A stretch of 6,544 nucleotides of DNA from a virus (IMGVR_UViG_3300039122_000006), one strand, 5' to 3'; shown: positions 1,457-6,268, counted from the stretch's first letter. Notes: generated by a model from the letters alone, not told the origin. Numbers and translations are program-made.

Positions 1457-1491
1457 TTGATGCTGGCGAAAAAAATCGAACAAGCTATAAT
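1457..1491 (+). promoter_or_regulatory. Candidate sigma70 promoter for galF: perfect -10 TATAAT at 1486-1491, weak -35
   Basis: TATAAT at 1486-1491 lies 31 nt upstream of the galF ATG. The nearest TTGnnn is TTGATG at 1457-1462, which gives a 23-nt spacer (too long); the 17-nt-spaced hexamer is poor. An A-tract (GCGAAAAAAATCG, 1467-1479) sits between them. Sequence inspection only. Confidence 0.3.
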
Positions 1492-1521: not shown

Positions 1522-2415
1522 ATGACGAATTTAAAAGCAGTTATTCCTGTAGCGGGTCTCGGGATGCATATGTTGCCTGCCACTAAGGCGATACCCAAAG
1601 AGATGCTACCAATCGTCGACAAGCCAATGATTCAGTACATTGTTGACGAGATTGTGGCTGCAGGGATCAAAGAAATCCTCCTGGTAACTCACGCGTCCAA
1701 GAACGCGGTCGAAAACCACTTCGACACCTCTTATGAGTTAGAATCACTCCTTGAGCAGCGCGTGAAGCGTCAACTGCTGGCGGAAGTACAGTCCATCTGT
1801 CCGCCGGGCGTGACCATTATGAACGTGCGTCAGGGCGAACCTTTAGGTTTAGGCCACTCCATTTTGTGTGCGCGACCTGCCATTGGTGACAACCCATTTG
1901 TCGTGGTACTGCCAGACGTTGTGATCGACGATGCCAGCGCCGACCCGCTACGTTACAACCTTGCTGCCATGATTGCACGTTTCAACGAAACGGGCCGCAG
2001 CCAGGTGCTGGCAAAACGTATGCCGGGTGACCTCTCTGAATACTCCGTCATCCAGACTAAAGAGCCGCTGGACCGTGAGGGTAAAGTCAGCCGCATTGTT
2101 GAATTTATCGAAAAACCGGATCAGCCGCAGACGCTGGACTCAGACATCATGGCCGTAGGTCGCTATGTGCTTTCTGCCGATATTTGGCCGGAACTGGAAC
2201 GTACTCAGCCTGGTGCATGGGGACGTATTCAGCTGACTGATGCTATTGCCGAGCTGGCGAAAAAACAATCCGTTGATGCAATGCTGATGACCGGCGACAG
2301 TTACGACTGCGGCAAAAAAATGGGCTATATGCAGGCGTTTGTGAAGTATGGCCTACGCAACCTGAAAGAAGGGGCGAAGTTCCGTAAAGGTATTGAGAAG
2401 CTGTTAAGCGAATAA
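1522..2415 (+). CDS. galF: GalF, UTP-glucose-1-phosphate uridylyltransferase paralogue (297 aa)
   Basis: ATG at 1522 gives [35 protein letters not shown]..., the sugar-nucleotidyltransferase N-terminal fold of GalU/GalF. The track's 1510 start is a GTG four codons upstream; ATG 1522 is preferred because AGG at 1508-1510 sits 11 nt before it and MTNLK is the GalF N-terminus as I recall it. Stop TAA 2413-2415. Located between wcaM and rmlB. Confidence 0.9.
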
Positions 2416-2787: not shown

Positions 2788-3873
2788 GTGAAAATACTTG
2801 TTACTGGTGGCGCAGGATTTATTGGTTCAGCTGTAGTTCGTCACATTATAAATAATACGCAGGATAGTGTTGTTAATGTCGATAAATTAACGTACGCCGG
2901 AAACCGGGAATCACTTGCTGATGTTTCTGATTCTGAACGCTATGTTTTTGAACATGCGGATATTTGCGATGCACCTGCAATGGCACGGATTTTTGCTCAG
3001 CATCAGCCGGATGCAGTGATGCACCTGGCTGCTGAAAGCCATGTTGACCGTTCAATTACAGGCCCTGCGGCATTTATTGAAACCAATATTGTTGGTACTT
3101 ATGTCCTTTTGGAAGCCGCTCGCAATTACTGGTCTGCTCTTGATAGCGACAAGAAAAATAGCTTCCGTTTTCATCATATTTCTACTGACGAAGTCTATGG
3201 TGATTTGCCTCATCCAGATGAAGTAAATAATACAGAAGAATTACCCTTATTTACTGAGACGACAGCTTACGCGCCAAGCAGCCCTTATTCCGCATCCAAA
3301 GCATCCAGCGATCATTTAGTCCGCGCGTGGAAACGTACATATGGTTTACCGACAATTGTGACTAATTGCTCGAACAACTATGGTCCTTATCATTTCCCGG
3401 AAAAGCTTATTCCACTGGTTATTCTTAATGCACTGGAAGGTAAGGCATTACCTATTTATGGCAAAGGAGATCAGATCCGCGACTGGTTGTATGTTGAAGA
3501 TCATGCGCGTGCGTTATATACCGTCGTAACCGAAGGTAAAGCGGGTGAAACTTATAACATTGGTGGGCACAACGAAAAGAAAAACATCGATGTAGTGCTC
3601 ACTATTTGTGATTTGCTGGATGAGATTGTACCGAAAGAGAAATCTTATCGTGAGCAAATCACTTATGTTGCTGATCGTCCGGGACACGATCGCCGCTATG
3701 CTATTGATGCTGAGAAGATTGGTCGCGCATTGGGATGGAAACCACAGGAAACGTTTGAGAGCGGGATTCGTAAAACGGTGGAATGGTACCTGTCCAATAC
3801 AAAATGGGTTGATAATGTGAAAAGTGGTGCCTATCAATCGTGGATTGAACAGAACTATGAGGGCCGCCAGTAA
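2788..3873 (+). CDS. rfbB: dTDP-glucose 4,6-dehydratase RmlB (361 aa), GTG start
   Basis: GTG at 2788-2790 gives [20 protein letters not shown]... with the Rossmann NAD-binding motif GGAGFIGS; the SDR catalytic motif YSASK and the conserved [10 protein letters not shown] are present. Stop TAA 3871-3873. Only a weak Shine-Dalgarno (GGA 2776-2778). Confidence 0.93.
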
Positions 3874-4772
3874 TGAATATCCTCCTTTTTGGCAAAACAG
3901 GGCAGGTAGGTTGGGAACTACAGCGTGCTCTGGCACCTTTGGGTAATTTGATTGCTTTTGATGTTCACTCTACTGATTATTGCGGTGATTTTAGTAATCC
4001 TGAAGGTGTAGCTGAAACCGTAAGAAGCATTCGGCCGGATATTATTGTCAATGCAGCCGCTCACACCGCAGTAGACAAAGCAGAATCAGAACCGGAGTTT
4101 GCACAATTAATTAACGCAACAAGTGTCGAAGCGATTGCGAAAGCAGCAAATGAAGTTGGAGCCTGGGTTATCCATTACTCGACTGATTACGTCTTCCCTG
4201 GAAATGGCGATATGCCATGGCTGGAGACGGATGCAACCGCACCACTAAATGTTTACGGTGAAACCAAGTTAGCCGGAGAAAAAGCGTTACAGGAATATTG
4301 CGCGAAGCATCTTATTTTCCGGACCAGCTGGGTCTATGCAGGAAAAGGAAATAACTTCGCCAAAACGATGTTACGTCTGGCAAAAGAGCGTGAAGAATTA
4401 GCGGTTATTAACGATCAGTTTGGTGCGCCAACAGGTGCTGAACTGCTGGCTGATTGTACAGCACATGCCATTCGTGTCGCACTGAATAAACCGGATGTCG
4501 CAGGCTTGTACCATTTGGTAGCCAGTGGTACCACAACCTGGTACGATTATGCTGCGCTGGTTTTTGAAGAGGCGCGCAAAGCAGGCATTCCCCTTGCACT
4601 CAACAAGCTCAACGCAGTACCAACAACAGCCTATCCTACACCAGCTCGTCGTCCACATAACTCTCGCCTTAATACAGAAAAATTTCAGCAGAACTTTGCG
4701 CTTGTCTTGCCTGACTGGCAGGTTGGCGTGAAACGAATGCTCAATGAATTATTTACGACTACAGCAATTTAA
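3873..4772 (+). CDS. rfbD: dTDP-4-dehydrorhamnose reductase RmlD (299 aa)
   Basis: ATG at 3873 overlaps the rmlB stop (TAATG). N-terminal GKTGQVGWEL is a GxxGxxG dinucleotide-binding motif; YGETK is the YxxxK catalytic motif. GAGG at 3859-3862 serves as an internal Shine-Dalgarno inside rmlB. Stop TAA 4770-4772. Confidence 0.93.
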   Translation: MNILLFGKTGQVGWELQRALAPLGNLIAFDVHSTDYCGDFSNPEGVAETVRSIRPDIIVNAAAHTAVDKAESEPEFAQLINATSVEAIAKAANEVGAWVIHYSTDYVFPGNGDMPWLETDATAPLNVYGETKLAGEKALQEYCAKHLIFRTSWVYAGKGNNFAKTMLRLAKEREELAVINDQFGAPTGAELLADCTAHAIRVALNKPDVAGLYHLVASGTTTWYDYAALVFEEARKAGIPLALNKLNAVPTTAYPTPARRPHNSRLNTEKFQQNFALVLPDWQVGVKRMLNELFTTTAI

Positions 4773-4829: not shown

Positions 4830-5711
4830 ATGAAAATGCGTAAAGGTATTATTTTAGCGGGTGGTTCTGGTACACGTCTTTATCCTGTGACTATGGCTGT
4901 CAGTAAACAGCTATTACCTATTTATGATAAACCGATGATCTATTACCCGCTCTCTACACTGATGTTGGCGGGTATTCGCGATATTTTGATTATCAGTACA
5001 CCTCAGGATACTCCTCGTTTTCAACAATTGCTGGGTGACGGTAGCCAGTGGGGCCTGAATCTTCAGTACAAAGTGCAACCTAGCCCAGATGGCCTCGCGC
5101 AGGCATTTATCATCGGTGAAGAGTTTATTGGTGGTGATGATTGTGCTTTGGTTCTTGGTGATAATATCTTTTACGGTCACGATCTGCCGAAGCTAATGGA
5201 GGCCGCTGTTAACAAAGAAAGTGGTGCAACGGTATTTGCCTATCACGTTAATGATCCAGAACGCTATGGTGTCGTTGAGTTTGATAAAAACGGTACGGCA
5301 ATCAGTCTGGAAGAAAAACCGTTAGAACCAAAGAGTAATTACGCCGTTACAGGTCTGTACTTTTATGATAACGACGTGGTTCAGATGGCGAAAAACTTGA
5401 AGCCGTCTGCACGTGGTGAGTTAGAAATTACAGATATTAACCGTATTTATCTTGAGCAGGGACGTCTGTCTGTCGCGATGATGGGGCGTGGCTACGCGTG
5501 GCTGGACACGGGGACTCATCAGAGTCTGATAGAAGCAAGTAATTTTATTGCGACAATTGAAGAGCGCCAGGGATTGAAGGTTTCCTGTCCTGAAGAGATT
5601 GCATTTCGTAAAGGTTTTATTGATGTTGAGCAAGTAAGAAAATTAGCTGTACCACTAATAAAGAATAATTATGGGCAGTATCTTTATAAAATGACGAAGG
5701 ATTCAAATTAA
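4830..5711 (+). CDS. rfbA: Glucose-1-phosphate thymidylyltransferase RmlA (293 aa)
   Basis: ATG at 4830 gives [21 protein letters not shown]..., carrying the nucleotidyltransferase signature GGxGTRLxP. Shine-Dalgarno AAGGAA at 4817-4822. Stop TAA 5709-5711. Confidence 0.93.
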
Positions 5712-6268
5712 TGAATGTGATTAGAACTGAAATTGAAGATGTGCTAATTCTGGAGCCAAGAGTATTTGGTGATGATAGAGGTTTCTTTTATGAGAGCTTT
5801 AATCAATCAGCATTTGAACATATTCTAGGCTATCCGGTCAGCTTTGTTCAAGACAATCACTCACGTTCATCAAAAAATGTACTCAGAGGCCTTCACTTTC
5901 AACGCGGCGAGTACGCACAAGATAAACTTGTACGCTGCACTCATGGAGCAGTTTTTGATGTTGCTGTTGATATTCGACCCAATTCGGTATCCTTTGGTAA
6001 ATGGGTTGGTGTTCTGCTTTCAGCTGATAATAAGCAGCAGTTGTGGATACCAAAAGGGTTTGCTCATGGCTTTTTGGTTCTGTCTGATATCGCTGAATTT
6101 CAATATAAAACTACAAACTATTATCATCCTGAAAGCGATTGTGGAATATGTTGGAATGATGAACGCATTGCAATTGATTGGCCCCAAACATCAGGGTTAA
6201 TCCTTTCGCCAAAAGATGAAAGGCTCTTTACGTTAGATGAGCTTATCAGATTAAAATTAATTGCATGA
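5711..6268 (+). CDS. rfbC: dTDP-4-dehydrorhamnose 3,5-epimerase RmlC (185 aa)
   Basis: ATG at 5711 overlaps the rmlA stop (TAATG). Size and sequence ([30 protein letters not shown]...RGLHFQ...) fit the cupin-fold RmlC family. Shine-Dalgarno AGGA at 5698-5701. Stop TGA 6266-6268. Confidence 0.93.
   Translation: MNVIRTEIEDVLILEPRVFGDDRGFFYESFNQSAFEHILGYPVSFVQDNHSRSSKNVLRGLHFQRGEYAQDKLVRCTHGAVFDVAVDIRPNSVSFGKWVGVLLSADNKQQLWIPKGFAHGFLVLSDIAEFQYKTTNYYHPESDCGICWNDERIAIDWPQTSGLILSPKDERLFTLDELIRLKLIA

Follow-up and report, generated by a model that had tools for sequence, protein, structure and literature searches.

The galF gene at the junction of the colanic acid and O-antigen clusters of Escherichia coli K-12 encodes a catalytically attenuated GalU paralogue marked by Met15-His16 in its nucleotide-binding loop

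After analyzing a 6,544-base stretch of DNA (the window), we concluded, with a probability of about 95%, that its galF gene, which is galF of E. coli K-12, is a duplicate of galU encoding a product with almost no catalysis left. The product carries a Met15-His16 pair at the position of the Thr-Arg pair in the nucleotide-binding loop of GalU. The attenuation is multifactorial: the pair serves as a diagnostic marker and explains part of it, but is not the whole mechanism. Work on this gene published in 2015, and extended to Klebsiella in 2024, covers how the residues correspond, how low the activity is and what the M15T/H16R substitution does, and the finding on the Met-His pair itself is already known. 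What is new here is the invariance of the signature across 80 species, the variability of residue 16 and the dN/dS estimates. We found no evidence that contradicted either the identification of galF or the reading of its product as an attenuated paralogue.

The whole window is 100% identical to the chromosome of E. coli K-12 (MG1655 and derivatives). For the matching part of K-12, RefSeq lists wcaM, galF, rfbB, rfbD, rfbA, rfbC and the beginning of wzx, each on the plus strand; with the JUMPstart element described below, the order is wcaM-galF-JUMPstart-rfbBDAC. The window spans the place where the colanic acid cluster meets the O16 O-antigen cluster. The final gene on the colanic acid side, wcaM, occupies positions 1-1347, with its 5′ end beyond the window edge. 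Downstream of galF come the O16 O-antigen operon's genes for dTDP-rhamnose, rfbB (2788-3873), rfbD (3873-4772), rfbA (4830-5711) and rfbC (5711-6268). Their junctions are arranged in the style of translational coupling: the stop of rfbB and the start of rfbD share the sequence ATGA (3870-3873), the stop of rfbA and the start of rfbC overlap at 5711, and the overlap of rfbC with the wzx start of the K-12 annotation is 4 nt (6265-6268).

The galF coding sequence (1522-2415, plus strand) comprises 297 codons plus the stop and encodes a paralogue of GalU that has residual activity as a UDP-glucose pyrophosphorylase. K-12 RefSeq annotates it as b2042 at the same positions and with the same start. 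A Shine-Dalgarno-like AGGTGGA, read from the sequence, is located on the plus strand at 1508-1514, 7 nt before the ATG at 1522. This ATG was preferred to an in-frame GTG at 1510 because of the Shine-Dalgarno spacing, the RefSeq start and the 1-297/297 match to the GalF models described below. Two minus-strand open reading frames that overlap galF (2243-2479 and 2325-2525) were rejected as spurious, since they run antisense to a strongly constrained gene and neither is annotated.

Profile models separated the product from GalU. The NCBIfam model TIGR01105, named 'GalU regulator GalF', scored 689.2 bits (cut-off 659.2), and the GalF equivalog model NF007516 scored 666.3 bits (cut-off 534), each covering 1-297/297. 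The GalU models NF009928 and TIGR01099 scored 393.1 and 313.1, below their cut-offs of 548 and 326.8, respectively. With both GalF models exceeding their cut-offs and both GalU models failing to reach theirs, the product is, judged by these profiles, GalF and not a second GalU. The nucleotidyl transferase superfamily domain (Pfam PF00483) is annotated on protein P0003, which is identical to the galF product, and 49 relatives of the product are found in the PDB, among them GalU, RmlA and GlmU-type enzymes.

The initial annotation placed Met15-His16 in the N-terminal loop, and translation of the gene bore this out. Codons 12-16 (1555-1569, plus strand) read G-L-G-M-H and align as a degenerate version of the NTP-phosphate-binding loop, GXG(T/S)R, with Met15 encoded by ATG at 1564-1566 and His16 by CAT at 1567-1569. 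We compared the product with GalU from the same genome (b1236, NC_000913.3), as the initial annotation had proposed. The two proteins are 58% identical over 289 residues (BLASTP, E = 3e-123), and the alignment is gap-free across the N-terminal 160 residues. Residues 5-30 of GalF align without gaps to residues 10-35 of GalU with 24 of 26 positions identical, the sole mismatches being M15/T20 and H16/R21. The Met-His pair therefore falls exactly on Thr20 and Arg21, and the GalU loop given in the initial annotation, GLGTRMLPATK, was correct. The same register of M15 and H16 was obtained with the solved GalU-type structures 2e3d, 4d48 and 6mnu. An intact G-X-G-T-R loop is thus absent from GalF, which has GLGMH where GalU has GLGTR. 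The window also encodes RfbA, an active paralogous nucleotidyltransferase (a thymidylyltransferase) with the canonical G-G-S-G-T-R loop at residues 11-16; its T15-R16 align with M15-H16 of GalF and serve as an internal control for the loop.

Published biochemistry bears directly on this gene. Ebrecht et al. (2015, Front Microbiol 6:1253, PMC4643126) obtained galU and an 894-bp galF by amplification from E. coli K-12; their galF is the same gene as the one in the window, with matching length and matching M15, H16 and K198 numbering, and we noted no difference. They stated explicitly that T20/R21 of the GXG(T/S)R motif in GalU are replaced by M15/H16 in GalF. The Vmax of GalF was 0.015 U/mg (approximately 0.01 per second) compared with 340 U/mg (227 per second) for GalU, so that the very low pyrophosphorylase activity stated in the initial annotation holds for the same K-12 gene. 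This activity was Mg2+-dependent, and the turnover, with a Vmax of approximately 1/20,000 that of GalU, was rated negligible (PMC4643126).

Mutagenesis in both directions has been published. The substitution T20M/R21H lowered the specific activity of GalU approximately 500-fold or more, decreased its Vmax by three orders of magnitude and increased its S0.5 for Glc-1-P 60-fold (PMC4643126), which agrees with the expectation that the Thr-Arg pair contributes to catalysis. The monomeric form of this GalU mutant had approximately the activity level of GalF (PMC4643126). Conversely, the M15T/H16R assay suggested for GalF had already been carried out in 2015; it yielded an approximately 10-fold gain in activity, with loss of the negative cooperativity for Glc-1-P (PMC4643126), and supports the reading of GalF as an attenuated paralogue. 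However, GalF M15T/H16R is still approximately 1,000-fold or more below GalU, and the Met-His pair alone is insufficient to account for the attenuation.

The residual activity raises the question of whether GalF might be a slow but genuine isozyme that keeps the adjoining colanic acid, O-antigen or capsule machinery provided with a small local pool of UDP-glucose. The measurable Mg2+-dependent activity fits such a role, as does complementation: a galU mutant fermented galactose after approximately 72 h when GalF was overexpressed, compared with 48 h for M15T/H16R and 12 h for GalU (PMC4643126). The position of galF between the wca and rfb/cps clusters, which is conserved across Enterobacteriaceae, is also in line with it. 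However, at 0.01 per second compared with 227 per second for GalU, the turnover is judged negligible, the chromosomal galF did not rescue galU mutants (PMC4643126), and the attenuating substitutions have been fixed and not purged, residue 16 being variable (His in 73 of 81 sequences). We therefore consider a slow isozyme improbable.

The loop substitutions act on the handling of UTP. In a GalU-type loop, the Arg neutralizes the charge of the UTP phosphates and the hydroxyl of the Thr touches the gamma-phosphate; UTP-bound structures show Thr coordinating the gamma-phosphate (PMC11796359). With G-L-G-M-H, GalF has a weakened grip on UTP, as the published mutagenesis shows. Loss of Thr and Arg nevertheless covers only about one order of magnitude of a deficit of approximately 2 × 10^4-fold. 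Part of the remainder comes from three other active-site residues, all on the plus strand: Ser113 (1858-1860), which replaces a GalU Ala near the uridine pocket; Ser175 (2044-2046), which replaces a Gly at a glucose-contacting backbone position; and Arg235 (2224-2226), which replaces a Glu and reverses the charge at the active-site entrance and the tight-dimer interface. These correspond to S115, S177 and R237 of Klebsiella pneumoniae GalF (KpGalF), where they were described as three further active-site substitutions (PMC11796359). Another part of the deficit resides in the strongly diverged Glc-1-P-binding subdomain, at about residues 163-210, and a further part in a C-terminus that has become unable to support a GalU-type tetramer.

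The comparison with GalU (b1236, PDB 2E3D) illustrates what was kept and what was lost. Both proteins belong to the PF00483 fold family, and they share the flanks of the phosphate loop and the Glc-1-P lysine, Lys202 in GalU and Lys198 in GalF. By alignment, Lys198 (2113-2115, plus strand) is the retained homologue of the residue that contacts the Glc-1-P phosphate in GalU; the K198A substitution had no further effect on GalF activity (PMC4643126). The differences are G-L-G-T-R versus G-L-G-M-H in the loop, Ala, Gly and Glu versus S113, S175 and R235 in the active site, a gap in activity of about 2 × 10^4-fold, and divergence of the Glc-1-P subdomain and the C-terminus. The subdomain is only approximately 21% identical between the two proteins, compared with approximately 63% for the remainder, and the C-terminal helices that form the tight dimer of GalU have diverged in GalF (PMC4643126). 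GalU is a tetramer, while GalF and its mutated forms are monomers (PMC4643126). Since the Met-His pair accounts for only about 10-fold, and since S113, S175 and R235, the diverged Glc-1-P subdomain and the lost tetramer accompany it, the attenuation of GalF is multifactorial.

The orthologue KpGalF resembles the K-12 protein. GalF-named clusters of K. pneumoniae are approximately 89% identical to GalF of the window, and the KpGalF gene stands at the head of the cps locus (PMC11796359). KpGalF carries the same five substitutions (M17, H18, S115, S177 and R237) and has negligible activity, amounting to 0.06% of that of KpUGP (mBio 2024, PMC11796359). Restoring all five residues resulted in a gain of only 27-fold, equal to 1.6% of wild-type UGP (PMC11796359). 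KpGalF differs from K-12 GalF in that its numbering is shifted by +2 and in that it is a dimer, unable to tetramerize, and not a monomer (PMC11796359).

To place the signature in a wider frame, we examined 80 species-representative galF loci from GTDB genomes, which encode proteins of 89-100% amino-acid identity and span Escherichia, Salmonella, Citrobacter, Enterobacter, Klebsiella, Kluyvera, Kosakonia, Leclercia, Lelliottia and others. Together with GalF of the window, they make 81 sequences; a separate set consisted of 120 protein clusters (90% identity). Met15 was invariant in both sets (81/81 sequences and 120/120 clusters), so that its occurrence is not due to chance, and S113, S175, K198 and R235 were each present in 81/81. 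In contrast, residue 16 varied: the 81 sequences have His in 73, Asn in five, Tyr in two and Arg in one, and the 120 clusters have His in 60, Asn in 54, Ala in three, Arg in two and Ser in one, the Met-Asn clusters being mainly Kluyvera-like singletons. At the nucleotide level, codon 16 in the 80 species loci is CAT in 52, CAC in 20, AAT in five, TAT in two and CGC in one. The loci with Asn or Tyr are L036, L052, L059, L072, L077 (Kluyvera), L024 and L068. The published claim that all five substitutions are conserved in enterobacterial GalF therefore fails at residue 16. Likewise, the Met-His signature proposed in the initial annotation stands for Met15, and His16 is not a fixed residue. The fixed signature of GalF is Met15 with S113, S175 and R235, and residue 16 is almost never Arg; in the loop, what is conserved is Met15 followed by a residue of a non-catalytic kind.

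The exceptions with Arg provide natural half-revertants of M15T/H16R. GalF of Citrobacter amalonaticus S646 (L010:4001-4891) has the loop GLGMR, with Arg16 encoded by CGC, and the GalF proteins P0072 and P0073 likewise have Arg16 in a GLGMR loop. These variants keep Met15, S113, S175 and R235.

The divergence of the Glc-1-P subdomain from GalU is matched by conservation within GalF. Over the 81 sequences, 201 of 295 alignment columns are invariant; in the subdomain, 26 of 48 columns are invariant, with a mean major-residue frequency of 0.93. This pattern allows the suggestion that GalF has come to use a different pair of substrates or to serve in ligand sensing, the subdomain and the Met-x loop binding another sugar-phosphate or nucleotide, or sensing UDP-glucose or UTP without turnover. 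A subdomain approximately 21% identical to that of GalU (PMC4643126) and yet conserved among GalF proteins is in keeping with such a shift, and an invariant Met15 beside a drifting residue 16 suggests selection beyond the ancestral catalysis. However, the literature examined reports no alternative substrate or ligand of GalF, the subdomain resembles other nucleotidyltransferases even less than it resembles GalU (PMC4643126), and the proposal is purely inferential. We regard it as a slim prospect.

The near loss of catalysis (PMC4643126) could in principle mean that galF is a functionless, decaying and pseudogene-like remnant. The reading frame, however, is intact in 80/80 species loci at 89-100% amino-acid identity, and the pairwise dN/dS values (Nei-Gojobori, against 12 species) range from 0.004 to 0.054, with synonymous sites near saturation. 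Accordingly, galF is under strong purifying selection and shows no decay, and the dN/dS result leaves a functionless remnant with virtually no credence. One comparison stood out for another reason. The proteins of Escherichia albertii (L006:4001-4891) and the window (1522-2406) are 99% identical, although 47% of the synonymous sites differ (dN/dS 0.004), an unusually deep synonymous divergence between two species of Escherichia. The recombination and the ancient diversity of alleles that are known around the O-antigen locus may lie behind it.

The flanks of galF were examined with regard to its relation to the rfb operon. A strong hairpin followed by a U-rich tract (UUGUUUUAUAU) lies at 2454-2511 on the plus strand, 39 nt past the galF stop. 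The RNA of 2410-2530 folds at -40.9 kcal/mol (z = -6.6), and 0 of 200 shuffled sequences fold as well. Judging by this folding energy, the hairpin is probably the intrinsic terminator of galF; a simple terminator consensus scan of 1300-2800 did not list it. In the promoter and terminator consensus scan of the same interval, matches were no commoner than in shuffled sequences, and no usable galF promoter emerged. A perfect TATAAT is present at 1486-1491 (plus strand), 30 nt upstream of the galF start, with no acceptable -35 hexamer at 16-18 nt from it; a TTGATG is 23 nt away.

The spacer between galF and rfbB (2416-2787) contains the full-length JUMPstart element of the rfb operon leader at 2674-2712 on the plus strand (Rfam RF01707, 60 bits, gathering score 35). 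The ops 8-mer GGCGGTAG is found inside it at 2701-2708 and occurs as a single copy in the window. Of the 80 species loci, 76 have an ops 8-mer no more than 1.5 kb downstream of galF, at a median distance of 286 nt. Four loci lack an exact downstream copy; the two of these that were checked (L023 and L062) have a JUMPstart match downstream nonetheless and were rejected as true exceptions. In one of them, Klebsiella indica L062, the TwoAYGGAY RNA motif (Rfam RF01731) occurs on the minus strand upstream of galF at 2565-2639 and 3037-3105 (49.6 and 54.6 bits), with no relation to the GalF finding.

Seven loci have an ops 8-mer approximately 1.2 kb upstream of galF, which could suggest that galF is ops-controlled in some species. 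We rejected this possibility and took the upstream 8-mers to be chance matches, because that of Citrobacter L012 sits inside the wcaM coding sequence and Rfam detects JUMPstart only downstream of galF. The order wcaM-galF-JUMPstart is found in this Citrobacter locus as well. On this evidence, galF is outside the JUMPstart/ops leader and forms a separate unit, which, to judge from the folding energy of the hairpin, would be a separate transcription unit. The initial annotation had placed galF directly upstream of the ops-controlled rfb operon; the position is right, and co-regulation by ops is not implied, since ops lies downstream of galF, past a terminator-like hairpin. The adjacency to rfb is compatible with a role in the supply of surface-polysaccharide precursors without demonstrating one.

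What, then, is the role of GalF? On the basis of sequence comparisons, we infer that GalF is retained for a probably non-catalytic role tied to UDP-glucose or surface-polysaccharide metabolism, given the strong purifying selection and the position of galF, which has the colanic acid cluster on one side and the JUMPstart/ops leader on the other. Because of the strong constraint, a regulatory or other non-catalytic role is the most likely of the readings that we considered.

A specific form of such a role was proposed by Marolda and Valvano in 1996, namely that GalF is a non-catalytic subunit that binds GalU and tunes UDP-glucose levels. As that work is summarized in later papers (PMC4643126, PMC11796359), co-expression altered properties of GalU, its thermal stability among them, and the two proteins were reported to interact physically. 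The model lives on in the NCBIfam name of TIGR01105, a non-enzymatic role fits the strong purifying selection on a protein with negligible catalysis, and most residues of the tight- and loose-dimer interfaces are kept in KpGalF (PMC11796359). An analogy is offered by the large subunit of plant ADP-glucose pyrophosphorylase, a non-catalytic superfamily paralogue that has lost the loop Arg (K44) and acts as a modulatory subunit; restoring the Arg partly resurrects its activity (PMC4643126). For the plant subunit, however, both hetero-oligomer formation and a regulatory function are established, whereas for GalF they are only proposed. Moreover, purified E. coli GalF was a monomer and no GalF-GalU complex was characterized in the 2015 study (PMC4643126), and stable GalF-GalU hetero-oligomers were judged unlikely in the Klebsiella study, whose authors called the in vivo function unknown (PMC11796359). 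A search for newer literature on a regulatory-subunit role of GalF yielded nothing beyond these 2015 and 2024 papers; a PNAS 2026 article (PMC12773781) was set aside as irrelevant, 'Galf' there denoting galactofuranose. The modulatory subunit that tunes UDP-glucose supply, as also suggested in the initial annotation, is an unproven proposal of 1996 that later biochemistry neither confirms nor excludes, and we hold it to be possible but doubtful.

We speculate that GalF is a pseudoenzyme under very strong purifying selection (dN/dS about 0.02-0.05) in which Met15 and the rebuilt Glc-1-P subdomain are positively maintained as a ligand-sensing or partner-binding surface, and in which residue 16, freed from catalysis, drifts. 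This proposal is rather unlikely to be right. If it is true, the natural variants at residue 16, including the H16R of C. amalonaticus S646, would constitute a series that separates the residual catalysis from the real function. Any functional model of why Enterobacteriaceae keep a nearly dead yet constrained copy of GalU at the surface-polysaccharide junction must fit the invariance of Met15, S113, S175 and R235, the variability of residue 16, the low dN/dS and the location of galF upstream of JUMPstart/ops.
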